A stretch of DNA of 64,000 nt from Bacteroidales bacterium UBA1205 (GCA_002309615.1 DBXT01000042.1:2154-66153), one strand, 5' to 3'. Shown: positions 20,666-38,359, counted from the first letter of the stretch. Numbers and translations: made by a program. The notes: generated from the letters alone by a model not told the origin.

Positions 20666-21649
20666 ATGAATACTAAACGCTTTCATTTAATCGGCATTTT
20701 TGGATTAACTTATTTATTGTCAATATTTTTTTCTTGTAGCCGTCAAGAAAATACTCAAACTTTTTCTTTAACCGAAAAGAAAGTTCCCTGCGATATTTCT
20801 TGTCAGGAAAGCATCACCGACACTGCCAACATCTTACCCTTACACATGGTTAATGATGTTATCCGTTCGCTCAAAAACTTTAAGGGTACCGGTTTTAAAT
20901 TACCGACCACTATTCCCGACACATGGATAGCTGAATACAAATTGGAAGCATTTTCCGATTTTGATATTTGGATCATTAGCAATGCAGGAGAACCTACTTT
21001 CAAAATATTAGCCACCATTTCTTCCGACACTTCCACCATTATTCAGGCCATACCCATAGCCTACAATACAGCCAAAGAGAAGCCCCAATACATAGAGAGT
21101 GAATATTGGCAATGCCACATAGACGATATCTACAACATTACCGTGAGCAAAGAATATGAAATGCTTCACTCTCTGACAGAAGACAGCACAGCCGACCATT
21201 CCAATCTGCACTATAAAACAGAAGACCAATATATTATAGAAGCTGACGGCACCATTAGCTACATAGAAAAACCTTCTTTCAACATAGATTACAAAGCCGT
21301 GATTCTATTTGCCGACACCTCGCATATTGACTTAAACAACAACGAAACGTGGCTGTGGAATGCTATCAGCATGCACGAACACTTGGAGCCCGAGAACATT
21401 ATTTTCCAAGAATGCTACAATCAATTTGATAAAATATCCGTCAAAAATTACACAGGAGAAGAAGTAGACATGCTGAATATTAGCGAAGAGGTAAACCGTC
21501 ATCATATAGGATACATAATAGTAACCAATGAAACAGAACCCGAATACATTCCCTATGATTCCCCGCAAAACATACTCCGCAATATAATGCAGATATTGAA
21601 TATGGATATCCCCGAAGAATGGGAATTGGACTATACTCCTCAAAACTAA
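20666..21649 (+). CDS. Hypothetical lipoprotein
   Basis: MNTKRFHLIGIFGLTYLLSIFFSCS is a signal peptide with a lipobox. The upstream part of the track ORF is AT-rich promoter DNA. Confidence 0.55.
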   Translation: MNTKRFHLIGIFGLTYLLSIFFSCSRQENTQTFSLTEKKVPCDISCQESITDTANILPLHMVNDVIRSLKNFKGTGFKLPTTIPDTWIAEYKLEAFSDFDIWIISNAGEPTFKILATISSDTSTIIQAIPIAYNTAKEKPQYIESEYWQCHIDDIYNITVSKEYEMLHSLTEDSTADHSNLHYKTEDQYIIEADGTISYIEKPSFNIDYKAVILFADTSHIDLNNNETWLWNAISMHEHLEPENIIFQECYNQFDKISVKNYTGEEVDMLNISEEVNRHHIGYIIVTNETEPEYIPYDSPQNILRNIMQILNMDIPEEWELDYTPQN

Positions 21650-21665
21650 ACAGCATAAGGTAAGA

Positions 21666-22925
21666 ATGGAACAATGGGTCTTTTTATCGGCTTATATTTT
21701 ACTTTTTATTGTCATTTGTCAAAAATGTAAATTCTTTACTTTCCGATATTTTGCCAAATATTGGGTATATATCTTATTCGGCATACACCTTGCTGCAGGG
21801 GTAGGATTTTACGGGGTGTATCACTACCATTATCCTTCAGGTTTGGATTCCGAAGCAAGTTTTCATTCCGGCACAAAATTGTTTAACACCCTCTATTCCC
21901 AGCCTAACACTTTTGCCAAACTTATGTTAGGATATACCGACAGCACCACCACAGCAGCAGGAACTGCCATCAACAAATCATGGGTGAAACAATATGAATC
22001 CAATACCATTAATGAAAATCGCACGGTCTTGCGTGTGAACGCATTGCTCAATAGTTTCAGCGGACAACACTATAGCGTGCATTTATTGCTGATGATCATA
22101 CTTTCTTTTTGTGGCAGTTTCTTTTTATTTCATTTTTTTGCTCCGGAGAATAAACAAGAAGAAAAGGTGTGTGTCTTAGCTTGTTTTCTCATTCCTTCCT
22201 GCTTGTTTTGGACATCAGGAGTGCTAAAAGAACCCTTATTCTTCTTTTGCATGTCTTGCTATTTATATTTTTTACAAAAAAACACGTCCAAAATCAGTGT
22301 TACCTATATCCTTTTGGCTATAATGGCTGCATTGGGCATGATATGGACCCGAACATTTATCGCCTTGGTGCTTATTCCCTTAAGTATGGTATATATATGG
22401 TGTGCATGGAGACCGCAACACCAAGCTTTAAAATATATCGGAGCGGTAATTTTAGGAGGGATAATGATAACCGTTATTCATAGCACAGCCCCCTGTTCCG
22501 CCTTGGATGTGGTGAATAACATAGCCCATAAAAACCAATTGTTCATCAATATGGAAAACGTATTGTTTGACGGATTGGACATGAACGTTCCCCATGTGAA
22601 AGCGAGCACTGCAAACCTTATATATAATGCTCCTTTTGCTCTATATAACACTATGTTTATCCCGTGCAAGCTCAAATCTGCATTGCATATAGGAATATTC
22701 ATGGAGAACATATTCTTCGGTTTGCTACTGTTTTTATCGCTGTCTATGGTCTTAATACGAAAAACACCCTATAGCAATAAACAATGGCTGCTGTTGCTGT
22801 TTTGTATCATTTGTTTTACCGTCATAGGGCTCACCACCCCCAATGCGGGAGCTATATGCCGATACAGATGTGTATTATTACCCTTGTGGTGCTATACGCT
22901 ATGCATGCCCTTATGCCGGAAATAA
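21666..22925 (+). CDS. Polytopic integral membrane protein (possible glycosyl/lipid-carrier-dependent transferase; unassigned)
   Basis: About 10 hydrophobic helices across 419 aa. No confident motif was recognised. Confidence 0.5.
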   Translation: MEQWVFLSAYILLFIVICQKCKFFTFRYFAKYWVYILFGIHLAAGVGFYGVYHYHYPSGLDSEASFHSGTKLFNTLYSQPNTFAKLMLGYTDSTTTAAGTAINKSWVKQYESNTINENRTVLRVNALLNSFSGQHYSVHLLLMIILSFCGSFFLFHFFAPENKQEEKVCVLACFLIPSCLFWTSGVLKEPLFFFCMSCYLYFLQKNTSKISVTYILLAIMAALGMIWTRTFIALVLIPLSMVYIWCAWRPQHQALKYIGAVILGGIMITVIHSTAPCSALDVVNNIAHKNQLFINMENVLFDGLDMNVPHVKASTANLIYNAPFALYNTMFIPCKLKSALHIGIFMENIFFGLLLFLSLSMVLIRKTPYSNKQWLLLLFCIICFTVIGLTTPNAGAICRYRCVLLPLWCYTLCMPLCRK

Positions 22926-22971
22926 AAAGAGGCAGTATACACTGCCTCCAATCTGATTCCATTCATCAACA

Positions 22972-24171
22972 TTATTCTTCTATAGCGGCTATGCCCGGCA
23001 ATATCTTGCCTTCGCAATATTCCAACATGGCTCCGCCGGCAGTAGAGATATAACTATATTTATCGGTAAGATGAAATTTATTGACTGCCGATACGGAATC
23101 GCCGCCTCCTACCAAAGTGAAAGCACCTTTTTCCGTTGCTTTGGCTACAGCATCGGCAACCATGAAGGTTCCTATGCTGAAATTATCCATTTCAAACACG
23201 CCCATAGGTCCGTTCCATAATATGGTGGCCGAATCCATAATCACCTTTCTGTACATGAGGCAGGTTTCGGGTCCTAAGTCCATACCTTCCATATCATCGG
23301 GTATGTGTTTCACATCATAAATAGCCCTCATGGCATCGTTACTAAAACGATCTGCGGCTATTCTATCTATGGTGCAATATAAATTCACACCCAATTCTTC
23401 GGCTTTTTTCATAATATCTTTTGCTACGGGTATCATATCGTCTTCACACAACGATTTACCGATATGGGCACCCATAGCTTTTTGGAAAGTAAAATCCATA
23501 CCACCGCCTATGATAAGATTATCCACCTTGGTCATTAAATTGGTGATTACGTTAATTTTACTGGAAATTTTCGAACCGCCTATAATAGCCGTTACCGGAC
23601 GTTGCGGATTTTGCATCACTCTGGTTAGGCTATCTATTTCTTTTTCCATTTGATAACCATACATTTTATCATTAGGAAAATATTGAGCTATTACTGCCGT
23701 TGAGGCATGCCGACGGTGTGCGGTGGAGAAAGCTTCGTTAACATATACATCTCCATACGATGCCAATGTTTTGGCAAATGCCTCATCACCTGCTTCTTCT
23801 TCTTTGAAATAACGTACGTTTTCCAACAAAAGAACCTCTCCCGCTTTTAAGTCCTTCACCATTTTTTGCGTCTGCTCACCTATACATTCAGGAGCGAACA
23901 ATACACTATTTCCTTCCAACACTTGTTTTAAATACGGCATTAAATGTTGCAAAGAAAATTGATATTCCTTGTTTTTAGGTCTGCCCAAGTGCGTCATTAA
24001 AATCACGCTACCGCCATCGGAAAGGATTTTCTTTAACGTAGGAATGGAAGCATCGATACGCTTGGTATCCTGAATTTCATACGTTTCGTTTAATGGCACA
24101 TTGTAATCAACTCTTACTAAGGCTTTTTTTCCTCTAAAATTATAATCTTTTAACTTTAGTTTTGCACACAT
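22972..24171 (-). CDS. pgk: Phosphoglycerate kinase
   Basis: 'RVDYNVPL', 'LMTHLGRPK' and 'STAGGAMLEY..GK.LPG' are classic Pgk motifs. Confidence 0.95.
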   Translation of the reverse strand: MCAKLKLKDYNFRGKKALVRVDYNVPLNETYEIQDTKRIDASIPTLKKILSDGGSVILMTHLGRPKNKEYQFSLQHLMPYLKQVLEGNSVLFAPECIGEQTQKMVKDLKAGEVLLLENVRYFKEEEAGDEAFAKTLASYGDVYVNEAFSTAHRRHASTAVIAQYFPNDKMYGYQMEKEIDSLTRVMQNPQRPVTAIIGGSKISSKINVITNLMTKVDNLIIGGGMDFTFQKAMGAHIGKSLCEDDMIPVAKDIMKKAEELGVNLYCTIDRIAADRFSNDAMRAIYDVKHIPDDMEGMDLGPETCLMYRKVIMDSATILWNGPMGVFEMDNFSIGTFMVADAVAKATEKGAFTLVGGGDSVSAVNKFHLTDKYSYISTAGGAMLEYCEGKILPGIAAIEE

Positions 24172-24205
24172 ATTATATCTGTTTATTTAGTTTCAAACTT
24201 ATTGT

Positions 24206-25729
24206 TTAAAAGGGTACTTCATCCGAATTGTCATTGTTCCCTTTTGAAGGCAGGGTGATTTTTTGTACATCTGATGAAAATTCGTTATTGTACGGCATAT
24301 AATCCAAATTGGTGAATTTAGCATGCTCGCCTATGAATCTCACTTTTACTTCATCTTGTCTGCCGTGACGGTTTTTGGCTATTATCAATTGTGCCAACCC
24401 GCGTGCAGGATCGCCATCGGGAAAAGTTTCTAATTTATGTGCTTCGGGGCGATAAATAAACATCACTATATCGGCATCCTGCTCTATAGACCCTGATTCA
24501 CGCAAATCGGACAGTTGAGGAATTTTATCCCCGCCGGCTCTTTGTTCCACATTACGACTCAACTGTGACAAAGCTATCACAGGCACATCCAACTCTTTAG
24601 CCAATGCTTTGAGCGAACGCGATATATTGGCAACTTCCTGTTCCCTGTTCGACTTTCCTTCTTTGCTGGTGGCTTGCATCAACTGCAGATAGTCTATGAT
24701 GATACATTGCACTTGATATTGCTGTTTTAATCTTCTGCATTTAGACCTTAAATCAAAAATATTCAGCCCTGCCGTATCGTCAATAATCAGCGGAGCCTCA
24801 GCCAAAACGCCCAAAGCCTCTGTTAAATTTTTCATTTCGGTATCGGTGAGTTTGGCTTTTTTCAGCTTGTCTTGATTAATTTTACTTTCTCCTGCAGCCA
24901 AACGCATCACTAATTCTGCTGCTGACATTTCCAAAGAGAAAAAAGCTACAGGACGTTTATAGTCTATTGCCATGTTGCGGGCCATGGTCAGCACAAAGGC
25001 GGTTTTACCCACACCGGGTCGGGCAGCAATGATGATCAAATTGGAGCCGTGCCAACCTCCCGTGACTTCATCCAATCCGAAAAAGCCGGTAGGAACACCT
25101 TGAACTTCACTCCCTTTAGAACGAGCTTCTTGCAATGACACCATAAATTGGTTTACCAATTCCGGCATGGTCTGCTCATTTTGAGAACGCTGCTGCTCCA
25201 TGATGTTGAATATACCTTTTTCGGCATCATCTATAATATCTTGAGCATCTTTTACATTCTCGTACGCTTGGGTGATGGTTTCGGTAGATACCGATATCAC
25301 TTCCCTGAGCATATATTTTTCTATCACCACATCGGCATAGTAATTAATATTCGCCGAAGAAGCCACATTGTTGGTAAGCGTTGTCAAATAATATGCGCCC
25401 CCGACAGCATCCAAGGTTTTGGATTTTCTCAGTTGTGCCGTTACCGAAAGAAGGTCTATGGGGTTGTGCTCGTTATAAACAGCCACCATGGCTTTGAATA
25501 TTTCTTTATGAGCATTCTGATAGAACATTTCGGCTTTTAATTTGCCTATCACCCGCCCTGCTGCATTCTGTTCCAACATCATGGCACCCAACAAAGCCTC
25601 CTCGTATTCTACTGCCTGAGGCTGGACTTTGCCCCTTAAATTAATATCTTGGACAACTTCTGAAGGCTTGCCTTTTTGATTTTTTTTACCGCTGTTTCCT
25701 TCCATGTTTTTTACTTTTCTTTTATCCAA
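24206..25729 (-). CDS. dnaB: Replicative DNA helicase DnaB
   Basis: Walker A '[11 protein letters not shown]', 'IIDYLQLM', 'ALSQLSR' and '[13 protein letters not shown]'. The alternative ATG at 25705 (MEGNSGK) would remove the overlap with lysS. Confidence 0.93.
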
Positions 25730-27438
25730 TTTTGAATTTCATTCAATTGCAATGCGGGCATTTCCAGCTTGTTCTTTTTACGCAAACCGTTTAAAGTATT
25801 TAACAGTTTGGCATCGGAAGCCGCTTTTAAATCGGCAAGGGTGTTCACTCCGGCTTTACGCAGAACGGGTATCCATGCTGCCGGTACGCCTTCGGCGGCA
25901 AATTCGGCATCGGTAGCGACTTCGGGTTGCTTTTCAGGACGCATCTGCGGGAAGAACAACACATCTTGAATAGAAGGCTGGTTGGTCATTATCATCACCA
26001 ATCTGTCTATGCCTATGCCCAAACCCGAGGTGGGAGGCATGCCGTATTCCATGGCACGCAAGAAATCTTGATCAATAAACATGGCTTCATCATCACCTTT
26101 TTCACTTAAGCGTAATTGCTCTTCAAAACGATAGCGTTGGTCTATGGGGTCGTTGAGTTCGGAATAGGCATTGGCTAACTCTTTACCATTGACCATCAAT
26201 TCAAAACGTTCGGTAAGCTGCTTATTGTTGCGGTGACGCTTGCACAACGGGGACATCTCTATAGGATAATCGGTGATAAAAGTAGGCTGAATGTATTTTT
26301 TCTCACAATGTTCACCGAAAATTTCGTCTATCATTTTGCCCACACCCATGGTTTCATCCACCTCTACTCCCAATTGCAGGGCAGTAGCCCTTAATTGGGC
26401 TTCATCCATTCCTTCTATATTTACCCCCGTATGTTCCTTGATGGCCTCTATCATGGTGATACGCTTAAACGGGCGTTTGAAATCTATAACATTATCGCCT
26501 ACCTGCACTTGTGTGGTACCATACAAAGTAAGAGCTATTTTTTCCAACAATTCCTCCACCGAATTCATCATCCAATTATAGTCCTTATAGGCTACATACA
26601 CTTCCATACAGGTAAACTCAGGATTATGCGTGCGGTCCATCCCTTCATTACGGAAATTGCGGCTGAACTCATACACGCCGTCAAATCCGCCGACTATCAA
26701 ACGCTTTAAATACAACTCGTTGGCTATACGCAGATACAAAGGAATATTCAACGCATTATGATGCGTTACAAAAGGGCGTGCGGCAGCACCACCGGGTATA
26801 GACTGTAAAACAGGTGTTTCTACTTCCAAATAGCCTTTGGAATTATAATATTCTCTTATGGTGTTGATTATTTTTGTACGACGTACAAAAATATCTTTTA
26901 CATCCGGATTAACTATTAAATCCAGATAACGCATGCGATATCTTTGTTCGGGATCGGTAAAGGCATCATATACTTTGCCTTCCGCTTGTTTTACTATCGG
27001 TAAGGGTCTTAACGACTTTGACAGCAAGGTAAACTCCTGAACATGAACCGTTATTTCTCCCATCTGGGTGATAAAAACAAAACCTTTTACCCCTATAATA
27101 TCACCTAAATCCAATTTTTTGTATATGCTATTATACAAAGTTTTATCCTCACCGGGGCACAAATCGTCTCTGCGAGCATACACTTGTATTCTACCTGTGG
27201 CATCTTGCAACTCGTAAAACGAAGCAGCTCCCATGATTCGCTGGCTCATAATACGGCCTGCTATGCTCACCTGCTGAAACAAAGTGTTATCTTTAGGATA
27301 TTGTTCCAATATTTCTTTAGCTGTAGCATTTACTATATATTCCGCTGCAGGATATGCATTGACACCCAAGCGCTCAAATTCTTTCAATTTTTCTCTTCTG
27401 ATAACTTCTTGTTCACTTAATTCCATTTTAGTATCCAC
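25711..27438 (-). CDS. lysS: Lysine--tRNA ligase (class II) with a C-terminal extension
   Basis: An OB anticodon-binding domain, then class II motifs '[15 protein letters not shown]' and '[11 protein letters not shown]'. About 70 aa of extra C-terminal tail is present. Confidence 0.95.
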
Positions 27439-27808
27439 GTAATATTATGCCTACTCTCAGTTTTCGGCTTCCCTTTTGGCAGGTAAAAACACACCGGTTT
27501 TTCCTACCTTGCACATATACATATTATTACATCAGACCTACACCACCCCTTGCAAATGTTTGCATAATAGAGAACAAAGGTAAAAGCTCTAACATATTTT
27601 TACACAAATGCTTAAAACAGGCAACCGCCTATCGCATCTTATTTGCAAAGTTAGCACTATTTTTGCTCATTTGCACTAAAAAAATAGCATTTTGCCAAAA
27701 ATATTTTTCAGCATTACTGTTGATAAATATGTGAATAAAATACCGGCACTTATAACACTCGGGCAAAAACAAGGCCGACACCCAAAAAAATATACACATA
27801 AAAAATGT

Positions 27809-27816
27809 TACCTTTG
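27809..27816 (+). promoter_or_regulatory. -7 promoter box TACCTTTG upstream of ispG
   Basis: TACCTTTG lies inside the 5' end of the track ORF, which argues that translation starts at ATG 27832. Confidence 0.5.
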
Positions 27817-27831
27817 CAAAAAATATACACT

Positions 27832-29451
27832 ATGTTACCGATGTACAACGATAATATGTTTTCTTACCATCGCCGTCAAACTTGGGAGACCAAAGTAGGT
27901 GAAATAGGGATAGGCGGTGCCAATCCCATACGCATACAATCCATGACCAATGTCAATACTATGGACACACAATCGTGTGTGGAACAATGTGTTAGGATGA
28001 TAGAGGCAGGCAGCGAATTGGTGCGTATCACCACTCCCGGCATTGCGGAAGCCGAAAATTTGAAAAACATACAGCACGGCCTACGCCAAAAAGGATACCG
28101 CGTGCCATTGATAGCCGATGTCCATTTCAATCCGAGAGTGGCGGAAACGGCGGCTCAAATAGTGGAGAAAGTCCGTATCAACCCGGGTAATTATGTAGAT
28201 AAAAAGCAATTTAAGCAACTTCAATATACCGACCATGAATATGCTTTGGAAATAGAACGCATTGCCGACAGACTTGTACCCTTGCTGAAAATCTGCCAAG
28301 CCAACGGAACCGCCATACGCATAGGCACCAATCATGGTTCTTTGTGTGACAGAATCGTCAGTCGCTACGGCAACACCCCTTTAGGCATGGCCATATCCAC
28401 CATGGAATTTGTTAGCATTTGCCACGATTTCGGATTTCACAATTTGGTACTATCCATGAAGTCGAGCGACACTCGCATCATGGTGCAGTCGGTACGCTAT
28501 TTGGTGAGCATGCTCAACGAAAAGCAATGGCATTATCCTTTGCATCTGGGTGTTACCGAAGCCGGAGACGGCGAATACGGACGTATTAAATCGGCGGCAG
28601 GTATAGCCTGTCTGTTGCAAGACGGCATAGGCGACACCATACGCGTTTCCCTTACCGAAAAACCCGAAAACGAATTGGCATTTGCCGATATATTGGCACA
28701 TCTTAACGATAACACACCTTCTGCAAGCAAGACAGCAACTGCAACTATTCATTATAATCCTTATCAATATCAAAAAAGAAGCACCCAAGCCTGTGGAAAA
28801 ATAGGCGGGGACCACCGTCCTGTTATTGTGAGCGAAGATGAACATATTCAAGACTGTGACCTGCATCCGCAAGAGCTGCCTGCAGCAGATATCATCATAG
28901 CGGAAGACAAAGACAACAATATAACAGCCTTGAGGACTTTGGCCGATACCGGTGAAAAACCCTTACTATTGAAAAAGACCTATACCGAAACTGACTGGGA
29001 AAAATTTTATGCCCATGCAACGGCGGATGTTGCCGTATTGGGTATGGACGGATTATTGGACGGAATATGGATACAAAATCCGCATTTTTCCTCTCAACGC
29101 ATTTACGAATTGTGTCTTAATATATTGCAAGCCTGCGGTTTAAGATACAGCCGTGCGGAATTTATCTCCTGCCCCTCCTGCGGACGCACACAATATGCGA
29201 TAGAACAAGTGGTATCGCAAGTGAAAGCCGCCACCGCACACTTGTGCGGTCTCAAAATCGGCATTATGGGCTGTATAGTAAACGGTCCCGGCGAGATGGC
29301 CGATGCCGACTACGGTGTGGTGGGTTCCGGTCGCGGAGTGGTAACACTCTACAAAGGGCATACCCCTCTTAAACGCAATATCCCGCAAGAACAAGCTGCT
29401 GAAGAACTTGTACTGCTGATTAAAAACGAAGGGAAATGGATGGAGCCGTAG
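27832..29451 (+). CDS. ispG: 4-hydroxy-3-methylbut-2-enyl-diphosphate synthase, long form with inserted domain
   Basis: 'IRIQSMTNV', 'PLIADVHF', 'NPGN' and the C-terminal Fe-S motif 'FISCPSCGRT...GCIVNGPGE'. A ~250 aa insert separates the TIM and Fe-S domains. Confidence 0.92.
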   Translation: MLPMYNDNMFSYHRRQTWETKVGEIGIGGANPIRIQSMTNVNTMDTQSCVEQCVRMIEAGSELVRITTPGIAEAENLKNIQHGLRQKGYRVPLIADVHFNPRVAETAAQIVEKVRINPGNYVDKKQFKQLQYTDHEYALEIERIADRLVPLLKICQANGTAIRIGTNHGSLCDRIVSRYGNTPLGMAISTMEFVSICHDFGFHNLVLSMKSSDTRIMVQSVRYLVSMLNEKQWHYPLHLGVTEAGDGEYGRIKSAAGIACLLQDGIGDTIRVSLTEKPENELAFADILAHLNDNTPSASKTATATIHYNPYQYQKRSTQACGKIGGDHRPVIVSEDEHIQDCDLHPQELPAADIIIAEDKDNNITALRTLADTGEKPLLLKKTYTETDWEKFYAHATADVAVLGMDGLLDGIWIQNPHFSSQRIYELCLNILQACGLRYSRAEFISCPSCGRTQYAIEQVVSQVKAATAHLCGLKIGIMGCIVNGPGEMADADYGVVGSGRGVVTLYKGHTPLKRNIPQEQAAEELVLLIKNEGKWMEP

Positions 29452-29454
29452 CGG

Positions 29455-31140
29455 CTAAAATCCGATATTAAAGCCTGCCATAATAGCGATAGGCAAACCG
29501 GTGGTTTTCTGCATATAAGGTGGATTGTATTTCTCCACCAATCCTTCTTCTCCTGCCGTTTTGTACCAATAGGCATGGGCATAGACAAAACTATTGTTCA
29601 TAAATTCCCATTCTACTTGCAGGGCTGCAATATGATTATAATATATAATGTTGTCCAAACATGGCAGTCCCCAAGGTTCGCCTACGCCGTAGCGATAGTC
29701 GGTGCCTTTGCGGATATAGGTATAAGACGCTTTCAAATGCAGACGTTGTACGGGACGGTATGCCAATTCGGCATAAATTTCGTCGGCATTGCTGCCCAAA
29801 TAATGACCTAGGCACACATCTCCGGAAGCAAAAGTGACAGACGGCATAAAATGTTGATATACATTGGGATGTGTGCGGGTGTATTCCAATTTTAACGAAA
29901 ACGTTTTGGGAAGGCCGCTGAAACAGGCTCCTACTTTGGTGCTGATATAATTAGATTGTTTTTGCTTGTCGAACATGCGGGTAAACGACAATTCATCTAT
30001 AAACACGGATGCATACAGATGCAGATATTTGACATTGCGGCTGCTGATGTCAAAGAACATCTGCGTGTTGTGTCCTGCCGTGTTGGAGGTGGCGTTATAA
30101 TTGTCATCCACTCCTTTGAAGAACAAAAACGGCACCACATATTGCAATTGGAAGCCCATATCGCTATAAACTATGGAATTGCCGATATTGATATATAAAT
30201 GTTTTACCGGACGGAATGTCAGCATATTGGCGGCTATCAATTTGCTTCGCATCACTTCCCGCCTGTTCCCGTTGATGGATACATACGAGGCGGCACTGTC
30301 AACGAGGTTGGAGGCCAGCCATCCGTTAAAATAGTTGTATTCAAACCATTCCACCGGAGACAATCGCAATTTAATCATCACATAGGGCAAGGTGCGTCCG
30401 GAAAGTATATTGGAGCCGTGACAGGCATTGCCCCATGCGATATTGTCTTTTATCAATGCCAGCGAACCCCATTTCCATGAAAAAGTGATGCCGCCCCGCA
30501 CATTGAAATAGTCGGTGTTGGTGGTTTGTCCTTTTAATATGGCTCCCTGCATTTGCGTCAGTTTTTCGGGGGTGCTCATCGGTTGGGACTGCGAATTGTC
30601 GGTGAAATTGGCATAAAAGCCGATATGCTTGCCTATATATCCCACCATTTCTCCTCCGCCCCAATAGCGGTACATGCGTTGTTCCTTCTGTCTGCCGGCT
30701 ACATAATATTCTATGCCCCATATCGGTTTTACCGATATTTTGAACCATTTGTTATTATAATAAAGTCCTAAAGGGTAGAGACATAAATTGACATGCTCGT
30801 TGTTTTTAAAGGCATTGATTTTATAGGCGGACTTGTCCGCATCGCGTTCCAAGTTGAATTCCAACAGGTGAAATGCCAATTCCTGCCTTTGCACTTTGTT
30901 GAGTTGCTCTTCCTGGGCTTGGACTTCCTGCAGCTTTTCTGCAACAAAGGCTCTGCTATAAGGCTTTATGGCCGTGTTGATGTCTATAAGGTGCAAACTT
31001 GCCATTTCATCCAAAAATGCATACACACTTTTATGTGATATGTGCAAAGGGTTTTCCTGGGCATGAACCGCAAATGCCACCACCGACAACAATACTATAC
31101 CTGCTATTTTGTATATAATACTCTGTTTCAAAGTTTTCAT
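29455..31140 (-). CDS. Outer-membrane beta-barrel protein, capsule-assembly Wzi-like
   Basis: The signal peptide MKTLKQSIIYKIAGIVLLSVVAFAVHAQ starts at 31140. The remainder has alternating beta-strand patterning and ends in aromatic GFNIGF. The family call is from memory of Wzi-like annotations, not from a search. Confidence 0.6.
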   Translation of the reverse strand: MKTLKQSIIYKIAGIVLLSVVAFAVHAQENPLHISHKSVYAFLDEMASLHLIDINTAIKPYSRAFVAEKLQEVQAQEEQLNKVQRQELAFHLLEFNLERDADKSAYKINAFKNNEHVNLCLYPLGLYYNNKWFKISVKPIWGIEYYVAGRQKEQRMYRYWGGGEMVGYIGKHIGFYANFTDNSQSQPMSTPEKLTQMQGAILKGQTTNTDYFNVRGGITFSWKWGSLALIKDNIAWGNACHGSNILSGRTLPYVMIKLRLSPVEWFEYNYFNGWLASNLVDSAASYVSINGNRREVMRSKLIAANMLTFRPVKHLYINIGNSIVYSDMGFQLQYVVPFLFFKGVDDNYNATSNTAGHNTQMFFDISSRNVKYLHLYASVFIDELSFTRMFDKQKQSNYISTKVGACFSGLPKTFSLKLEYTRTHPNVYQHFMPSVTFASGDVCLGHYLGSNADEIYAELAYRPVQRLHLKASYTYIRKGTDYRYGVGEPWGLPCLDNIIYYNHIAALQVEWEFMNNSFVYAHAYWYKTAGEEGLVEKYNPPYMQKTTGLPIAIMAGFNIGF

Positions 31141-31278
31141 CTTTCCACCAAGCTGATTGTGCATGACTATTGTAAAATACAAAAGTACTAAATAAATGTG
31201 AAATATAAACATTTGCAAGGAATAAATTTTTATTGACAGCTTTCGGGCGGAACTTTTATTCTGCATCAGTAAAAAAAA
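30951..31278. repeat. Direct repeat copy 1 (wzi-like 5' coding end plus its promoter/leader)
   Basis: It aligns by eye base-for-base with 32741..33068 at an offset of ~1790 bp, with roughly 80-90% identity and long identical runs such as 'gtgcatgactattgtaaaatacaaaagtactaaataaatgtgaaatat'. Confidence 0.85.
31180..31187 (-). promoter_or_regulatory. -7 promoter box (TACTTTTG on the minus strand) for the wzi-like gene
   Basis: Plus-strand CAAAAGTA lies 40 nt upstream of ATG 31140. Confidence 0.5.
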
Positions 31279-31492
31279 TTTCATATCAATGCTGCTTGTG
31301 CACACTGTTTTCCATATTGCGGTGGGGCCTTCCGGTTTCTTCAATAGAAAAAAAATGATAACCCCGAAGAAGCATCTTTTCAGAACAGCTGACATCAAAT
31401 ACTTAAAAATTCTTTCATTGGTCTAAAAAATGGCATATACTTCTTTTTTACAATTTTTCAATATTATATAATTAGTTATTAAAAATATATGT

Positions 31493-31542
31493 TAATCCAA
31501 ATTTTTATATAAATATTTTGGATTATAATCCAAATTTTTATA
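31493..31542. promoter_or_regulatory. Operator/iteron-like repeat array upstream of the ATPase gene
   Basis: A 17 bp perfect direct repeat TAATCCAAATTTTTATA occurs at 31493-31509 and 31526-31542. The 16 bp perfect palindrome TTGGATTATAATCCAA (31518-31533) links the two copies. The array lies ~35 bp upstream of the -7 box. Confidence 0.45.
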
Positions 31543-31574
31543 CATATTTTTTTGATTAGAATGTTTTTTTTTTG

Positions 31575-31582
31575 TACCTTTG
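31575..31582 (+). promoter_or_regulatory. -7 promoter box TACCTTTG for the ATPase gene
   Basis: TACCTTTG lies 27 nt upstream of ATG 31609. Confidence 0.5.
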
Positions 31583-31608
31583 CATCCGTATTCATCAAAT
31601 TATCTATT

Positions 31609-32739
31609 ATGGATTTACTTAACAGAACTCTTCAGCAAGTTATTGAAAATAGAATATTTAAAGGTAAAGCCATAGTGCTTGTCGGTGCGAGACAAGTTGG
31701 CAAAAGCACTCTTTTCCGTCAGATTTTATCCTCCTGTCATGATATACTGACCTTAAACTGCGACGATATAGAAACCCGCAATCTGCTTGAAAATGCCAAT
31801 TTGAGCGAATTGCAACGACTTGTCGGTTCACATACTATAGTTATGATTGATGAAGCTCAACGACTAAAAGGAGCCGGACTTACCATGAAACTTATTACCG
31901 ACAATATGCCCGATGTTCAGTTGCTCATCACAGGATCATCATCTTTTATGCTTCAAGGCAGTCTTAACGAGCCGCTTACCGGTCGCAAATTTGAATATCA
32001 TCTATTTCCATTTTCCACCCAAGAGATAAACGATAATCTCGGATATTTGCGTACCCGTCAACTGTTGGAATCCCGACTTATATTCGGCTCCTATCCGGAT
32101 GTTATTAATCATATTGCGGATAGTGCAGATATTTTATCCAACCTTTCAAGCAGTTACATGTATCAGGATTTGCTCTCATTGGAAGGAATACGCAAACCCG
32201 TGATTATTGAAAAATTGTTGATAGCCTTAGCTTTGCAATTGGGTAATGAAGTATCATACTACGAACTTTCAAAAACCGTCGGGTCGGATGTAAAAACCAT
32301 TGAGAAATATGTTGACCTGCTTGAAAAATGCTATATAATATTCCGCCTGCCCGCTCTGAATCGGAATATGCGTTCAGAACTCAAAAAAGGAAAAAAAATA
32401 TTTTTCTACGATAACGGCATCCGCAATTCCATCATACATAACCTCAATCCGCTCTCCCTACGAAACGATATAGGGGCATTGTGGGAAAATTTTATTGTAA
32501 GCGAAAGAATAAAATATAATCACTATCGCGGACATCATGTAAACTATTATTTCTGGAGAACAACCACACAACAAGAAATAGACTTTATTGAAGAAAGTGG
32601 CGGCGAATTCCAACTTTTTGAGATGAAATGGAACCCCAAGAAAACTCTTGTACAAGCTCCACGGGAATTTACAAAAGCATATGGAGAAATGCCCTTTGCA
32701 ACCATCACTCCTGACAATTACCTTGATTTTCTGACATAA
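31609..32739 (+). CDS. AAA-ATPase with a C-terminal DUF4143/PD-(D/E)xK-like domain (COG1373-type)
   Basis: Walker A 'GARQVGKST', Walker B 'VMIDEAQ', and C-terminal 'QQEIDFIEE...LFEMKW' (D..ExK-like). The start MDLLNR at 31609 lies downstream of the promoter box. Confidence 0.8.
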   Translation: MDLLNRTLQQVIENRIFKGKAIVLVGARQVGKSTLFRQILSSCHDILTLNCDDIETRNLLENANLSELQRLVGSHTIVMIDEAQRLKGAGLTMKLITDNMPDVQLLITGSSSFMLQGSLNEPLTGRKFEYHLFPFSTQEINDNLGYLRTRQLLESRLIFGSYPDVINHIADSADILSNLSSSYMYQDLLSLEGIRKPVIIEKLLIALALQLGNEVSYYELSKTVGSDVKTIEKYVDLLEKCYIIFRLPALNRNMRSELKKGKKIFFYDNGIRNSIIHNLNPLSLRNDIGALWENFIVSERIKYNHYRGHHVNYYFWRTTTQQEIDFIEESGGEFQLFEMKWNPKKTLVQAPREFTKAYGEMPFATITPDNYLDFLT

Positions 32740-32740
32740 G

Positions 32741-32930
32741 TCCTGCTGTACGGTTTGACGGCCGTATTGATGTCAATGATATGCAAGGATGCCATTTCAT
32801 CCAAAAAAGCATATACGCTTTTGTGTGTGATATGCTATGGATTTTCCCGAGCATGAACGGCACATGCCGCAACCGACAACATCACTATACCCGCAATTTT
32901 ATATATAATACTCTTTTTCAAACTTTTCAT
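32741..32930 (-). pseudogene. Truncated, stop-interrupted 5' fragment of a wzi-like gene
   Basis: It translates as MKSLKKSIIYKIAGIVMLSVAACAVHARENP*HITHKSVYAFLDEMASLHIIDINTAVKPYS, against MKTLKQSIIYKIAGIVLLSVVAFAVHAQENPLHISHKSVYAFLDEMASLHLIDINTAIKPYS in the intact gene. It has an in-frame TAG, and homology ends at the ATPase stop. Confidence 0.8.
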
Positions 32931-32969
32931 CTTTCCACCGACCTTATTGTGCATGACTATTGTAAAATA

Positions 32970-32977
32970 CAAAAGTA
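32970..32977 (-). promoter_or_regulatory. Orphan copy of the wzi-like -7 promoter box
   Basis: It has the same CAAAAGTA context as 31180-31187. It points into the pseudogene fragment and then antisense into the ATPase 3' end. Confidence 0.4.
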
Positions 32978-33159
32978 CTAAATAAATGTGAAATATGAAC
33001 ATTTGCAAGCAAGAAATTTTTGCTTGTTGATTTTTGGGTGGCACTTTTATGCTACATGAGTAAAAAATGACAGTTTATTATAGTAGCGTGCCTTCGGCAC
33101 GCGAGAGGGAGCGGAGTGTATATTCTCTCCTCCATATTGCGACCTGCGGTCTTGTATGG

Positions 33160-33192
33160 AGTTAATAAAATAGTGTGCCGGAGGCACACTAT
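33160..33192 (-). terminator. Putative terminator of the protease-RT operon
   Basis: A perfect 10 bp stem ATAGTGTGCC/GGCACACTAT (33170-33179 / 33183-33192) with loop GGA. On the minus strand it is followed by TTTATTAAC. Confidence 0.55.
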
Positions 33193-33208
33193 TTCGCTTA
33201 TCTTATTA

Positions 33209-33233
33209 ACTTCGCTTGATTCCTAATGACAAG
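33209..33233. repeat. Cassette-flanking imperfect direct repeat, copy A
   Basis: ACTTCGCTTGATTCCTAATGACAAG compares with ACTTCGCCCGATTCCCAAAGACGAAC at 36650-36675, about 19/25 identical. The preceding TTATT is also shared. Confidence 0.5.
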
Positions 33234-33309
33234 ATTTAGCAAATATTCAATCTATTCTACAATATTTTTGTTTTTAAAGTTTTTTAGAACTAAATATTAT
33301 ATACAACGA

Positions 33310-34992
33310 TCACACATATCTACTAAAGTTCTCAACTTCGTGATATTCAATATACTCAGTCAACCTATTAATTTCGTCTTCATTAATACAAGAGTTGTCC
33401 GGATTTTGAAATATATTCTTAATATCTTCTTTTAACCAATCAATGTTCCAGATACTTTCGTTTGCATTTGCAGCATATTGGCATAAAGGTTCTGAAAATT
33501 CTTTATTGCGGTTTTCTTTAATAGTCAATCTTTGTAGCCATATTTCCAAATAACCCACATTAGGTAGCTGATCAAATTTTTTCAAGATTTTCTCAATTAC
33601 TTCTTTTTTCTTATTAGTATCTGGCTCTTGTGATAAAATCTTGCTTACGATAGCAACGAATGTTTTGTATACCTTTGGATTATTGAAAGCAATATTTGTT
33701 AATATACTAATTAAGACATCTGAAGAACCGAATTCTTTATATAAATCCAATTTTTCTGTTTCTGAAATCCATTTGAAGAACAAATCCATTGATTTTTGAA
33801 CAGAACCTGAGTTCGGGTATTCTTGTGCTAATCTGTTTATACGCAACAGATGTTTCTGTAAACTATATTTGTTATCTTTTTTTTCTAAATCCTTGTAGCC
33901 ATTCGTAATATAATACAATTTGTCAGGCTTGATTGCTCCGTTTATTATATCCTGAGTTATCATTGTTTTCTGAGTGTTGAGTCTAAAATTCAAACTTGAC
34001 AAAACCTCCGTTAAGATTTTAGCAATTTTAATGACGTCCTCTTGCGAGTTTCCAAAAATGCGATAATCATCACGATAACGTAAAATTCGGTAGTCTGATA
34101 TTTTTGCCTTAAAAATCTTTTCAGATAACAACAAATCAGCATAACCCAACACTATTTCTGCAATAAAATCCATTAAAACACTGCCTTGAGGGATGCCATT
34201 AGTTTGTTGATATGACATGGATTGTATACGTGAATCAATAATATCACCTACTGTATATCGGTTCTTAACTTGTTGTAAATAAATAATAGCTTCACTACTT
34301 CCATCTAAAAATTTAGTATTACAAACACTTAGCAACTCAGCATTTAGTTCAACTTCTTTATTTTTATTTCTGTATTTATGTTTAATTTTTGCATTCTCTT
34401 TTCCACACATTGCCCATGTTATAGAGTGTGTATAAATCGATCCATAACAATCTGTTATGTCGGTTGTTATTAGATAATTGAAATTCATAGCCAACTTTAT
34501 GGATTGCTGTTCAATTTCCTCCCACCAATTTAGAATCGTATTTGTACTATTTTTCTGTTTCGACAAATTAATAATAGGTAAACTATAGCATTTAATTTTA
34601 TCGTTTTTTGCAAACTCCTGAAACCTTTCAACTATCAATGCCCAATTATCTTCTTTTGTAATTTCATTGACTAAATAAACATATAGTACTGGGTTAATAA
34701 TTTGCAAAGGACGCCACGAAAATCGTCCATCTTTATTTTGAAAGAAATGATAATTGACGTTTTCAATTGTCTTAGGTTCTACATCCAAAATATCGCTTTT
34801 TTGTGTTTTATTTTCTTTATACTTATATCTCTTGCATACAAGGAAACTTGTCAATTCGTTTAACAATTTTTGAAAATCAAAATATTTAGGCAAGCAGATA
34901 TTACAAAACGATTCTTGTCTCAAAAAAAAATGTTTTGCTTCTTCTGCTGAAGCATCAATGATAAAAGTATTCATAAATCTTTTTTCTATCAA
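33310..34992 (-). CDS. Reverse transcriptase, AbiK/Abi-P2/UG-like, with a ~215 aa helical C-terminal domain
   Basis: RT motif A is 'ITTDITDCYGSIYTHSITW' (aa 175-193), motif B 'NGIPQGSVLMDFIAEIVLG' (aa 265-283), motif C 'RYRDDYRIFG' (YRDD = nt 34066-34077) and motif D/E 'LNFRLNTQKT'. The track start at 34992 is TTG. The first ATG is at 34974 (MNTFIID). Confidence 0.85.
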   Translation of the reverse strand: MIEKRFMNTFIIDASAEEAKHFFLRQESFCNICLPKYFDFQKLLNELTSFLVCKRYKYKENKTQKSDILDVEPKTIENVNYHFFQNKDGRFSWRPLQIINPVLYVYLVNEITKEDNWALIVERFQEFAKNDKIKCYSLPIINLSKQKNSTNTILNWWEEIEQQSIKLAMNFNYLITTDITDCYGSIYTHSITWAMCGKENAKIKHKYRNKNKEVELNAELLSVCNTKFLDGSSEAIIYLQQVKNRYTVGDIIDSRIQSMSYQQTNGIPQGSVLMDFIAEIVLGYADLLLSEKIFKAKISDYRILRYRDDYRIFGNSQEDVIKIAKILTEVLSSLNFRLNTQKTMITQDIINGAIKPDKLYYITNGYKDLEKKDNKYSLQKHLLRINRLAQEYPNSGSVQKSMDLFFKWISETEKLDLYKEFGSSDVLISILTNIAFNNPKVYKTFVAIVSKILSQEPDTNKKKEVIEKILKKFDQLPNVGYLEIWLQRLTIKENRNKEFSEPLCQYAANANESIWNIDWLKEDIKNIFQNPDNSCINEDEINRLTEYIEYHEVENFSRYV

Positions 34993-34995
34993 ATA

Positions 34996-36618
34996 TTATT
35001 TCTTCAATTCTATCTCATAAAAACACCATCCACCCTCTACAGTTTCTCTTAAATTCATTTCAGTTGTAGCGAACGGAATAGGAGGAAAGTATAATGTGAA
35101 TGTTATATCTTCTCCATTAGAGAAAAAATATGTTTTTTGCGGAGCTATTGCTATTCCTTCTGCTTTTGTCATTGTATACGCTCTCCCATTAACAGATAGA
35201 TAAGTATTCTTATCAATATAGCAATAATCAGCGTAAGAATCACCTATTTTATTATTGGCAATAATCTCAACTGCTGTATATTCTTTTTTCAAAGTAACAC
35301 TTTTGATTTTTGTATTTTCTGCCGATGCCGATTTAGTTCTTACCGTGGGCCAATATATTGTATTGGAAGAATTTACATTGGGCGATACACTTCGCTCATT
35401 GTAAGATGATTGTGTTGAAGAATTAGCGGACGTTGATTGATTAGAACACTTAATCAAAAAAACAAAGTTTTTTAAACTTTTGACTTTGTCGCTTAATTTC
35501 ATTCCGGAAACTGTATTGTTTGTTGGCAGTACGGATGTTAACGATGCACTTTCCACAAGATTTCTCAACAAAGAAGTTTTAATTGCATAACCGACATTTT
35601 CCGCTCCAATATGTTTAGCATTGACAATGCCTATAAGATTGCCATTATTATCAAAGAGAGGACCACCACTATTTCCCGGCTGTACAGGTGCTGAAATTTG
35701 ATACAAAGATGCATCTCCCTGAAAACCTGTTTTGGAGCTTATCACACCTGTGGTAAGTTTTATTTCATCTCCCATGGTACTTGTCAAAGGATAACCCAAA
35801 ACAAATATTTCTTCTCCGACTTCAGATGTACTTGTTTTTATTTTGTATGGTAATGTTCCGAATCCTTTAAATCTGTTATCGTTTATTTTTAATATTGCCA
35901 AGTCATTTATTTTGTCCGTAGCTACAACTGATGCCGAATATGAAACATCAAAATTTCCGTTTACACCATTAATGTTGATAGATTTAGCATCTTCTACAAC
36001 ATGGTAATTTGTTACAATGTAACCATTGTTTAATGCAAATCCTGTTCCTGACCAATTTTCAATTTTTGACTCTTCCTCTCTTTCTTTAATTTCTCTTTCA
36101 GCTTGCCAATACATTTCTTTTGTAGGATAGGTTTTTATTAATTTATAGTGCAATATACATTTTGCTGATGCTGCAGCATCTCTTCCCATAGATTTAGCAA
36201 GAGCTTCTTTCGGTATGTTCAATTTAAAATCTAACGTTGTTCCGTTGTACAATGTAACCCATTCTTCCATAGAGTAATCCTTAAAGGTTTGTGTAAATCT
36301 ATATTGGTTAGATTCTCCGATTCTTGAAAAAATAGCTGCTCCTCCATCTTGACCTCCAATAGCATATCTATTATTGCCTATTTTTTGAATAAAAATAGTT
36401 TCAAAAGTATTATTAGGAGGGAAAGCCCTACCGAGAGCAAAAACTTGACTAGACATAGACATTTCATACACCCCTTCAATTGGATCTAATGAGCTGATAT
36501 TATTTTTGAAATATTCTTTTGCTCTAATCAGATCTGTTCTAGTTTGTCCCATTACACTTGCAACAACACACATTAAAAGTATGCACATACATAATTTGGA
36601 AATTCTATTTGTTTTCAT
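34996..36618 (-). CDS. Exported trypsin-like (S1/Trypsin_2-type) serine protease with unknown N- and C-terminal domains
   Basis: The signal peptide is MKTNRISKLCMCILLMCVVASVMGQ. The catalytic triad context is 'TNYHVV' (His206), 'INDLAILKI' (Asp239) and 'GNSGGPLF' (Ser317). An S/N/T-rich linker spans aa ~391-420. The stop lies 3 nt (TTG start) or 21 nt (ATG start) before the RT start. Confidence 0.85.
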   Translation of the reverse strand: MKTNRISKLCMCILLMCVVASVMGQTRTDLIRAKEYFKNNISSLDPIEGVYEMSMSSQVFALGRAFPPNNTFETIFIQKIGNNRYAIGGQDGGAAIFSRIGESNQYRFTQTFKDYSMEEWVTLYNGTTLDFKLNIPKEALAKSMGRDAAASAKCILHYKLIKTYPTKEMYWQAEREIKEREEESKIENWSGTGFALNNGYIVTNYHVVEDAKSININGVNGNFDVSYSASVVATDKINDLAILKINDNRFKGFGTLPYKIKTSTSEVGEEIFVLGYPLTSTMGDEIKLTTGVISSKTGFQGDASLYQISAPVQPGNSGGPLFDNNGNLIGIVNAKHIGAENVGYAIKTSLLRNLVESASLTSVLPTNNTVSGMKLSDKVKSLKNFVFLIKCSNQSTSANSSTQSSYNERSVSPNVNSSNTIYWPTVRTKSASAENTKIKSVTLKKEYTAVEIIANNKIGDSYADYCYIDKNTYLSVNGRAYTMTKAEGIAIAPQKTYFFSNGEDITFTLYFPPIPFATTEMNLRETVEGGWCFYEIELKK

Positions 36619-37022: not shown

Positions 37023-37080
37023 ATAAAAAAAATGATATAAAAAACCAACAAAGTCAATTTGTTGAAAAAAATATCTGCAA

Positions 37081-37181
37081 GGACGTTTCATGAAACGTCC
37101 CCACAATATCATGGTGAGTTTTCACTATAGGTGGCTTTGACAAGCTCAGCCACCCATGTAAGGACGATGTGTACATCGTCC
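37081..37181. repeat. Three GC-rich stem-loops in the divergent intergenic region
   Basis: H1 is 37081-37100, GGACGTTTCATGAAACGTCC, a perfect 20 bp palindrome. H2 is 37130-37154, GGTGGCT..AGCCACC. H3 is 37162-37181, GGACGATGTGTACATCGTCC. H1 and H3 share the frame AAGGACG-N-CGTCCC(C/G)ACA. Confidence 0.6.
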
Positions 37182-37248
37182 CGACAGGTATCTCTCCATT
37201 AAGGTATGTATTGTCCATACAAATATCGGAATATTAATAAAAAAATAC

Positions 37249-37256
37249 TATCTTTG
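37249..37256 (+). promoter_or_regulatory. -7 promoter box TATCTTTG immediately upstream of coaE
   Basis: It ends 5 nt before ATG 37261, which implies a leaderless or near-leaderless mRNA if functional. Confidence 0.35.
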
Positions 37257-37260
37257 CAGT

Positions 37261-37839
37261 ATGAAAAAAATAGGGATTACCGGATATATCGGCAGTGGAA
37301 AAACCACGGCATGTATGATATTTGAGCATTTGGGAATTCCGGTGTATTATAGCGACAAGCAGGCCAAAGAGGCTTACAAGCAGGCGGAGATACAGGAGCA
37401 GATAGTGCAAATTGCGGGAGCGTCGGTGTATGAACACGGTGTACTCAACACTTCAGTTTTGGCGGATATTATATTCCGGCAGCCGGAGAAATTAGCACTT
37501 GTCAACGGAATTATACACCCTTATGTATGGAATCATTTTTTGCAGTGGTGTGAACAACAAGAGAGTGCCTATGTTTTGTTCGAATCCGCAATTTTGTTTC
37601 AAACGGGGTGGCATTCCCGCTTCGAAGATGTTATACTCATCCGCACGCCCATGGAAGAGTTGTACAATCGTATTCAATTTCGCAATCATTGGACTATCGA
37701 ACAAATATCTCGGCGGCTGCAACAGCAGAACATTTCTCCCGAGGCGGTTGAAACCTGCAAATACATAGTCGATAATGCGGAAGCAGACTTGATGCTGCCT
37801 CAAATATTGCAAATTCACAACGAAATTCTAAGCGAATAA
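37261..37839 (+). CDS. coaE: Dephospho-CoA kinase
   Basis: 'IGITGYIGSGKTT' P-loop, ~190 aa, typical CoaE length and layout. Confidence 0.88.
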   Translation: MKKIGITGYIGSGKTTACMIFEHLGIPVYYSDKQAKEAYKQAEIQEQIVQIAGASVYEHGVLNTSVLADIIFRQPEKLALVNGIIHPYVWNHFLQWCEQQESAYVLFESAILFQTGWHSRFEDVILIRTPMEELYNRIQFRNHWTIEQISRRLQQQNISPEAVETCKYIVDNAEADLMLPQILQIHNEILSE

Positions 37840-37893
37840 GAAAAAAATATTGAAAATTCATTCTGCTTTTGCTTAAAGAATAAAAAAAAATGA

Positions 37894-37901
37894 TACCTTT
37901 G
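37894..37901 (+). promoter_or_regulatory. -7 promoter box TACCTTTG upstream of gcvH
   Basis: TACCTTTG lies 78 nt upstream of ATG 37979. Confidence 0.45.
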
Positions 37902-37978
37902 CCATTACGAAAGGCTTTTTGAAGAAGAAGCACAAATAGTTAACAATCACGTAATTAACAATATAAAAAATTTAATAG

Positions 37979-38359
37979 ATGAAAGTTTTAGAAAATTTAA
38001 AGTACACGCAAGACGATGAATGGATAAGAGTGGAAGGTGATATTGCATACGTAGGTATCACTGACTATGCTCAACATGAATTAGGAGATATAGTATTTGT
38101 TGATGTTACCAGTGAAGGCAGTTCATTGGATAAAGAAGAAGTTTTCGGTTCTATTGAAGCCGTTAAAACAGTAGCTGATTTACTTATGCCCGTAGCCGGC
38201 GAAGTAATGGAATTCAATGCTGAATTGGAAGCTAATCCTGCATTAATCAACACCAATCCGTACGATGAAGGTTGGATTATCAAAATGAAAATGAATAATC
38301 CTGCTGACGTAAACGAACTTTTAACCGCAGCACAATATAGCGAAAAAATAGGTTTATAA
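37979..38359 (+). CDS. gcvH: Glycine cleavage system H protein
   Basis: '[20 protein letters not shown]' carries the lipoyl-Lys motif (E-x-V-K). Length is 126 aa. Confidence 0.93.

Follow-up and report, generated by a model that had tools for sequence, protein, structure and literature searches.

By what route does a single gene without any mobility gene beside it come to lie between two diverged copies of the front end of its neighbour? This question is raised by a 64,000-nucleotide (nt) stretch of the genome of Bacteroidales bacterium UBA1205 (GCA_002309615.1 DBXT01000042.1:2154-66153), here called the window and numbered from its first nucleotide. An AAA_14/DUF4143 ATPase-nuclease gene is bracketed in it by a direct repeat. 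The first copy (R1) belongs to an intact gene for an outer-membrane-type protein (OMP) and the second copy (R2) stands behind the ATPase gene. The repeat is probably the scar of a gain by homologous recombination, in which a single-gene, defence-type cassette entered a cargo hotspot as part of a B-type segment that was inserted into an A-type locus within the promoter core of the OMP gene.

A diverged repeat with an identical core

Exact alignment bore out the colinear, diverged duplication of about 330 bp that a preliminary description of this DNA had reported. Both copies measure 326 bp within strict limits, at a spacing of 1790, and differ by one 1-nt indel. The substitutions had been estimated by eye at 10-20%, which was right at its upper end: our own alignment gave 81.5% identity over 335 nt. 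A repeat finder returned the blocks 30944-31231/32734-33021 (84%) and 31224-31276/33015-33067 (74%), with start-to-start distances of 1790-1791. A search of the whole 2.31-Mb genome found two copies only (second copy E = 1e-92, far beyond chance), which rules out a dispersed repeat family.

The divergence is very patchy. R1 and R2 share 79.5% identity in the coding part, 94.9% in the core of promoter and 5' untranslated region (5'UTR) and 68-73% in the distal upstream part. Within the core, the difference list of the alignment leaves a run of 51 nt in which both copies are exactly identical. This run contains a Bacteroidetes-type -7 box, TACTTTTG, at 31180-31187 and 32970-32977. R2 had been described as starting directly after the ATPase stop codon with an ATG, a signal peptide, about 60 codons and a TAG. 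It indeed starts at 32743, and its ATG (32930-32928, minus strand) is preserved together with the signal peptide and some 63 codons, interrupted by a single in-frame TAG at codon 32 (TTG>TAG).

Two alleles that switch partners once

The coding parts of the repeat diverged under selection. Third codon positions hold 26 of the 40 differences between R1 and R2. The Nei-Gojobori method counted 26 synonymous and 13 non-synonymous changes, a ratio of non-synonymous to synonymous rates (dN/dS) of 0.057 (p = 6e-10 against neutrality). Over the three codon positions, the changes that only R2 carries number 6/7/17. The third-position bias and the low dN/dS mean that R2 accumulated almost all of its divergence as a working gene and is a piece of a second allele, termed B. 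An in-situ duplication followed by neutral decay is ruled out by the same values, the R2-private changes included.

The locus was compared with representative genomes of the genus (G-numbered; the genome of the window is G000) and with metagenomic contigs (L-numbered) found via the OMP protein cluster. Contig L137 is 99.7-100% identical to the window at 20140-27800 and is therefore conspecific. L137 and its siblings L138-L144 have one copy of the repeat, no ATPase gene and several differing cargos. Against L137, the coding part of R1 is 95.9% identical and that of R2 79.4%; the promoter core gives 97.5% and 93.7%, and the distal part 76% and 95%, respectively. The X sequence that follows the repeat copy in L137 is 97.3% identical behind R2 and has no counterpart behind R1. 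The same reciprocal pattern was obtained against G004-type loci.

The switch between the alleles was located with informative sites, defined as differences between R1 and R2 at which one copy equals L137. Read from distal to coding, the matching copy is 2222222212122221111111111111111211211111111111121111. The order changes over once (Fisher p = 8e-8), and does so in the 51-nt identical run or adjacent to it. The two copies are different alleles and reciprocal chimeras that change partners within the core, in agreement with the Campbell-type integration or replacement by DNA of a related strain that had been proposed.

To the left and to the right of the insert, the resident haplotype differs from L137 by about 3-5% (identities: ispG 97%, R1 coding 96%, distal_A 95%, X_A 97%). 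This like divergence on both flanks identifies the 1.79 kb between the cores as an insertion into one contiguous haplotype. The repeat sequence is single-copy in the conspecific contigs L137-L144, in the G004-type contigs L022, L115 and L129-L136, and in G007, G006 and G001. The duplication was not found in any genome of the genus or metagenomic contig carrying the OMP gene. The preliminary description had named one observation that would speak against a gain, namely the same duplicated arrangement in all related genomes; no compared relative has it. The features of the locus are listed in Table 1.

Table 1. Features of the OMP-coaE locus, in window coordinates.
Feature	Position	Strand	Evidence or remark
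ispG (GcpE)	27805-29451	+	Pfam GcpE E = 2e-114
OMP gene, intact, 561-aa (amino acids) signal-peptide outer-membrane-type protein	29455-31140	-	A-type allele, mosaic
Repeat copy 1 (R1)	30953-31278	-	live OMP codons 1-63, then core, then distal_B
R1 coding, codons 1-63 of the live OMP gene, A-type	30953-31140	-
R1 promoter/5'UTR core	31141-31219	-
Run of 51 nt, R1 and R2 exactly identical	31156-31206 / 32946-32996	-	difference list of the R1/R2 alignment
R1 upstream part distal_B, about 60 nt, non-resident type	31220-31278	-
X_B, non-resident stretch of 174 bp from R1 to the ATPase module; positional counterpart of X_A	31279-31452	.
ATPase module, 1290 bp, discrete	31453-32742	+	operator-like repeats, own promoter, then coding sequence
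AAA_14/DUF4143 (PDC-S01) ATPase-nuclease coding sequence	31609-32739	+
Repeat copy 2 (R2), pseudo-5' end of the diverged B-type OMP allele with promoter	32743-33068	-
R2 coding, B-type OMP codons 1-63, TAG at codon 32	32743-32930	-
R2 B-type 5'UTR	32931-32945	-	shared promoter core comes next
R2 resident-type distal_A	33007-33068	-
X_A, resident upstream sequence; in all A-type relatives it comes after the one repeat copy	33069-33295	.
Abi-P2-type reverse transcriptase (second cargo)	33310-34992	-	PADLOC AbiP2 3.7e-181
Secreted trypsin-like protease (second cargo)	34996-36618	-	Pfam Trypsin_2 2.7e-28
coaE, right anchor of the hotspot	37261-37839	+	Pfam CoaE 9e-32

The inserted segment

The sole substantial open reading frame (ORF) in 31279-32742 is the AAA_14/DUF4143 gene, and the segment encodes no transposase, integrase or other mobility gene. 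Terminal inverted repeats were not seen by eye, and the repeat finder reported no inverted pair near 31279-31453 or 32742. The preliminary description had held that a transposase-type target duplication would not give this layout. Such an origin is ruled out by the absence of a transposase and of visible terminal inverted repeats, and by a repeat that is 326 bp long and diverged.

The ATPase has about 380 aa, with PF13173 (AAA_14, 6e-29) at residues 19-140 and PF13635 (DUF4143, 2e-40) at residues 186-342. Over its full length it matches the PADLOC profile PDC-S01 (PDLC04789, 3.5e-155). DUF4143 is classed in the PD-(D/E)XK nuclease superfamily (PMC3424549). Six ATPase copies with 94-95% aa identity are present in related assemblies at another locus, between a GT2 operon and an acetyltransferase gene. 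DNA homology of the window to these copies (89.7% nt identity) runs exactly from 31453 to 32742/3. With these shared ends, the ATPase travels as a fixed-end module of 1290 bp. R2 starts where the module homology stops (32742), leaving zero gap. No microhomology is evident at the joint 32742/32743, which is the canonical right end of the module.

None of 80 loci with ATPase relatives has a homologue of the OMP, coaE, reverse transcriptase or protease genes, and all the 94-95% identical copies are located at the GT2-to-acetyltransferase locus. In G000, an empty version of that locus was not seen, as the contig breaks there. Exact-protein look-ups with the ATPase and OMP of the window returned no record for either. 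At that other locus, G004:C30 (L120, 379-547) contains a deletion remnant of the module, corresponding to window positions 31453-31570 and 32695-32739. Its operator/promoter part (89% identical) is fused to the final 45 bp of the gene (98%), a deletion between two TTTGCA microhomologies having removed the ORF.

The 5' part of the module (31493-31590) carries operator-like tandem 33-bp palindromes and an own promoter. The two palindromic units occupy 31493-31558 (TAATCCAAA...TTTGGATTA), 5' of the promoter, and are kept upstream of orthologues in several other genomes. Their half-site motif reappears directly after the stop codon in L075, L076 and L080.

Between R1 and the module lies X_B. A minus-strand hairpin with a T-run was noticed in it by eye; the terminator scan did not call it. 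No homologue of X_B was found in the genus genomes or in the 80 ATPase loci. Its first 97 nt are identical (97/97) in the independent Logan contig L128, which joins X_B to R1-type distal sequence, the OMP promoter and an OMP allele of the G004 type. The insert's left joint thus occurs in nature beyond the metagenome-assembled genome (MAG) of the window. The X region as a known RNA or repeat was ruled out; Rfam was empty at E <= 1 and matches elsewhere in the genome are trivial only.

A cargo hotspot with exchange between lineages

The preliminary description had proposed a hotspot in which accessory genes accumulate, and the relatives agree. The OMP-coaE interval exists in at least seven cargo versions and as one empty site. 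The empty site, of about 200 bp, is that of G006. G007 has 2.9 kb with Fic, an unknown gene and radical-SAM. G004 has 2.5 kb of other cargo, and G004-type contigs carry TonB_C genes and radical-SAM. Upstream of its OMP gene, G001 encodes a YhcG nuclease and an Eco57I-like methylase; a coaE homologue was not found within about 12 kb upstream. G005 has three DUF4143 ATPases and a YhcG fragment at this position. Conspecific contigs contain IS110, PIN_3 and others, in at least four metagenomic versions. The window itself holds a second cargo, the reverse transcriptase and protease genes (33310-36618), which is missing at the OMP-coaE site of all relatives examined.

Some of these cargos have repeats or stacks of their own. 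In G001 (L021), 49-nt direct repeats (3905-3953 and 5060-5108, 88%) tightly flank the lone YhcG/DUF1016 PD-(D/E)XK nuclease gene in the OMP-upstream hotspot, a second nuclease family with a repeat-gene-repeat footprint. In G007 (L019), 49-nt direct repeats of coaE-upstream sequence (9108-9156 and 11685-11733, 78%) flank the entire cargo of Fic, unknown and radical-SAM genes. In G005 (L024, 1791-7091), the region immediately upstream of the OMP orthologue is a stack of three different AAA_14/DUF4143 ATPases of 438, 449 and 380 aa and the YhcG nuclease fragment; long repeats between these stacked genes were not detected.

The flanks of the interval differ from the genomic background. Genome-wide, G000 shares about 84% identity with G007 and about 71-73% with G004, yet its ispG-OMP tract (about 27850-31277) reaches 92% to G007 and 95-99% to G004-type contigs. 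Its left edge is sharp and intergenic, just upstream of ispG, where identity to the G004-type contigs rises from about 71% to 95-99% at 27426/27850. On the coaE side, identity to these contigs is 87-96% (window 37071-38000, 94-96%). X_A is 97.3% identical to the conspecific contigs L137-L143 and to G004, and 92.6% to L129. At the protein level, the OMP is 96% identical to that of G007 and 95% to that of G004; CoaE is 97% identical to G004, 72% to G007 and 61% to G006. Judged by these identities, alleles of the OMP-coaE locus clearly move between species. The OMP gene itself is mosaic, with only 87% to G004-type contigs at 29700-30300 and 97% to G007 at 30000-30500.

Repeat-flanked relatives of the ATPase

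Direct repeats are a recurrent feature around this ATPase family. Repeats of 35-325 bp flank 9 of the 73 ATPase relatives with usable flanks and 7 of 206 neighbouring control ORFs, an odds ratio of 4 (p = 0.008) for cases that are not independent. In many pairs of relatives, the common part consists of the gene and about 110-160 bp upstream and ends 0-12 bp past the stop codon. Repeat-flanked insertion is a recurrent feature of AAA_14/DUF4143 ATPases and apparently an unpublished signature for PDC-S01 genes; no description of a mobility signature of PDC-S01/COG1373 genes was found in the literature mentioning DUF4143.

One of the nine lies on a Prevotella sp. contig (L083), where 201-bp direct repeats (4485-4685 and 6778-6978, 92%) flank an ATPase relative. 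They copy an internal coding piece of a neighbouring gene for a 538-aa glycosidase-like protein, and an extra inverted piece is present. Among the Segatella copri loci L061-L074, the ATPase genes are more than 99% identical and the homology ends are staggered, at -35, -72, -101 and -131 upstream and at +130 to +279 downstream. These staggered ends suggest that, within a single species, recombination has repeatedly had its breakpoints close around the gene.

Origin of the repeat

The resident A-type locus would have had the order OMP, promoter core, distal_A, X_A, cargo and coaE, as it still has in conspecific strains. Into it, a 1.79-kb segment of a diverged B-type version of the same locus would have been inserted, comprising distal_B, the 174-bp X_B, the 1290-bp module and the B-type OMP 5'UTR with the first 63 codons. 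Both joints would lie in the promoter/5'UTR core of 51-79 nt, the sole stretch nearly identical between A and B. Two routes lead to this product. A single reciprocal crossover between the chromosome and a circle carrying core and cassette (Campbell-type or 'ends-in' integration) would suffice, as would a double crossover with a linear donor already in the order repeat-cassette-repeat. Either would leave a live OMP gene with intact promoter and 5' end, and an orphan promoter with a 63-codon stub facing antisense into the ATPase gene. The primary duplication itself probably happened earlier, in the donor lineage, by insertion with long target duplication. We infer the direction of the event, a gain here and not a loss elsewhere, and likewise any choice between a circular and a linear donor.

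Several points weigh against this explanation. The searches for a B-type donor yielded neither an OMP_B allele of full length nor a donor in repeat-cassette-repeat order. A donor search with the R2 peptide grafted onto the rest of the OMP retrieved A-type or more distant alleles only, and a metagenome scan with the OMP gave 3 loci only. L128 matches X_B at 97/97 positions, but its distal sequence is merely 88% identical to that of R1, so that a picture with one donor needs at least one further exchange at 31278/31279. If R1 and R2 recombined within the core, the segment would loop out and the exact single-copy A-type state would return; the direction is therefore not provable. The window comes from a MAG of 82 contigs with 7.8% contamination, in which the assembler may have switched strains at the shared core. 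Finally, recombination over just 51-79 nt of near-identity is inefficient.

A more far-reaching reading makes the cassette itself the agent. The ATPase cassette could be a selfish element without recombinase, whose own insertion makes long target duplications that serve as portable homology arms; it would loop out as a circle and re-integrate at the same locus in other strains or species by homeologous Campbell-type recombination. Taken as a whole, this sequence of steps is tentative and rather doubtful.

Less probable is a homology-facilitated illegitimate recombination. A linear donor (ispG, OMP_A, promoter, distal_B, X_B, module) would form its left joint by homology, near 27.4-27.85 kb. 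Its right joint would be illegitimate, between the end of the module and codon 63 of the recipient's B-type OMP gene, whose 5' end and promoter would be left as R2. Tract and ATPase would thereby be gained in one event. The unusual likeness of the ispG-OMP tract to other species (92% to G007 with a background of 84%, 95% to the G004 type with 71%) fits this proposal, as do the coincidence of its right end with R1, the 81% identity of R2 coding to G007, near the G000-G007 background, and the OMP_A-promoter-distal_B-like-X_B arrangement of L128. It is nevertheless unlikely. Distal_A and X_A (95-97%) and R1 coding (96%) match the conspecific locus as one haplotype, where the proposal needs different lineages. 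The G004-type and conspecific single-copy loci would become additional recombinants, and the illegitimate joint would have hit the canonical right end of the module, 32742, by coincidence.

The enrichment of repeat-flanked copies in the ATPase family could also point to an insertion in situ with a long target duplication, the copies being identical at birth and later partly overwritten by exchange with other alleles. R2 abuts the canonical end of the module without a gap, exchange between lineages is rampant at the locus, and target duplications of 30-420 bp are documented around nuclease and defence genes (PMC2853133). The pattern of differences makes this course quite improbable: R1 and R2 differ along their whole length outside the core, with no near-identical remainder. 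Overwriting would require at least two replacement tracts, each ending in the core, or a donor already with the same insertion. The low dN/dS of R2 moreover shows the duplication to be much younger than the split of A and B.

Very unlikely, finally, is an assembly artefact, in which the contig threads co-occurring strains at the promoter core and the A/B mosaic was made in silico; even then, the B strain would have the order repeat-cassette-repeat. The contamination and fragmentation of the MAG speak for it, as do the near-identical conspecific variants of the locus that are common in public metagenomes and the position of both switches inside an exact 51-nt repeat. The largest default k-mers of current metagenome assemblers are 55-141, and this repeat is shorter. 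The bin contains no second OMP allele and no second X copy, the joint of R1-type distal sequence with X_B is independently present in L128, and k-mer sharing cannot make the joint of the ATPase end with codon 63.

Transcription signals and the neighbouring OMP gene

Insertion of the B-type segment, as preferred here, would account for the orphan promoter. This promoter is intact in sequence within R2 and is oriented toward the 3' end of the ATPase gene. The terminator scan found no terminator-like site on the minus strand between promoter and ATPase gene. Since the promoter is intact and no such site intervenes, antisense transcription into the ATPase gene is possible. On the plus strand, a hairpin with a T-rich tail (33005-33027) inside R2 resembles a terminator, about 270 nt downstream of the ATPase stop codon. 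Its R1 counterpart is disrupted and G007 has a compensated variant (GGAATAAATTTTTATTCC). The hairpin could end ATPase transcripts. X_A carries further hairpins and a terminator-like site called by the scan at 33168-33194.

The name 'wzi-like', given to the OMP gene in the preliminary description, was not confirmed. The protein has no sequence match in Pfam, NCBIfam or PDB. A search of the OMP (P0001) and its homologues P0007 and P0009 with hmmscan against a local Pfam-A was empty even at E <= 10. This disagrees with precomputed tables, which give PF14052 (Caps_assemb_Wzi) for close homologues of the OMP.

Relation to known systems

Three known systems resemble the locus. Campbell-type integration also leaves an insert flanked by direct repeats, whose sequence insert-free genomes carry once. 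Donor and recipient sequence are combined reciprocally in the two repeats, with one switch, and host homologous recombination suffices. Since promoter and 5' end are part of the fragment, one copy of the gene survives intact. In contrast to the textbook layout, no circle or plasmid is in evidence here, the donor fragment is homeologous (about 80% identical outside the core of 51-79 nt), and a linear donor already carrying the repeats gives the same product.

Insertion with long target duplication is known for restriction-modification and other nuclease genes (Nobusato et al. 2000, Gene 259:99; Furuta, Abe & Kobayashi 2010, PMC2853133). The repeats have 30-420 bp, and left and right copies are typically near-identical, for example 417/423 and 384/412 (PMC2853133). 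A life cycle was proposed that uses the repeats at a later stage for amplification and release (Nobusato et al. 2000; PMC2853133). The window shares a self-contained, nuclease-encoding, defence-type gene without mobility gene, and repeats (326 bp) that are far longer than transposon target duplications and align to one copy in insert-free L137 and others. It differs in that left and right copies are only 81.5% identical, R1 matching the target in the coding part and R2 in the distal part. Since the likeness to the target is thus divided between them, a single target in the genome of the window was not the template of both copies. Such a common origin of both repeats may hold for an unseen donor. 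The cargo differs as well, an AAA_14/DUF4143 ATPase-nuclease instead of a restriction-modification pair.

The third system is the displacement of gene ends in Vibrio cholerae, where orphan immunity genes result from sequential displacement of effector modules of the type VI secretion system. Allelic modules are reported to recombine there via a short conserved stretch at the gene end and to leave a truncated stub beside the new cargo, so that arrays accumulate (Kirchberger et al. 2017, PMC5361080). In that system, 3' gene ends are reportedly involved and the old module is pushed downstream; in the window, the stretch is a promoter/5'UTR and the stub a 5' end.

The cargo itself belongs with the PDC-S01/COG1373 single-gene candidates for phage defence. 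The ATPase of the window matches the profile and holds both domains; its role in defence is putative.

Significance

Gene gain by homologous recombination at hotspots is an established principle. A specialist would therefore find the case neat and not surprising, and it is an unusually clear one. Defence genes gather in chromosomal hotspots, and the arrival of single genes without recombinase is usually inferred from presence and absence alone. Here, the scar itself records the mechanism: the recombination joints are resolved, and two alleles switch partners once. If the doubtful reading as a selfish element were true, the locus would in effect exemplify the 'virus-like life cycle' that had been put forward as a hypothesis for restriction-modification genes. 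The window would then be the first case with the re-integration step visible, because the alleles of donor and recipient differ.

The promoter core of about 60 nt is almost invariant across species with genome identities of 71-84%. A conserved promoter can act as a landing pad for recombination between quite distant genomes. The window adds a well-resolved case to the recurrent repeat-flanked DUF4143 (PDC-S01) cassettes.

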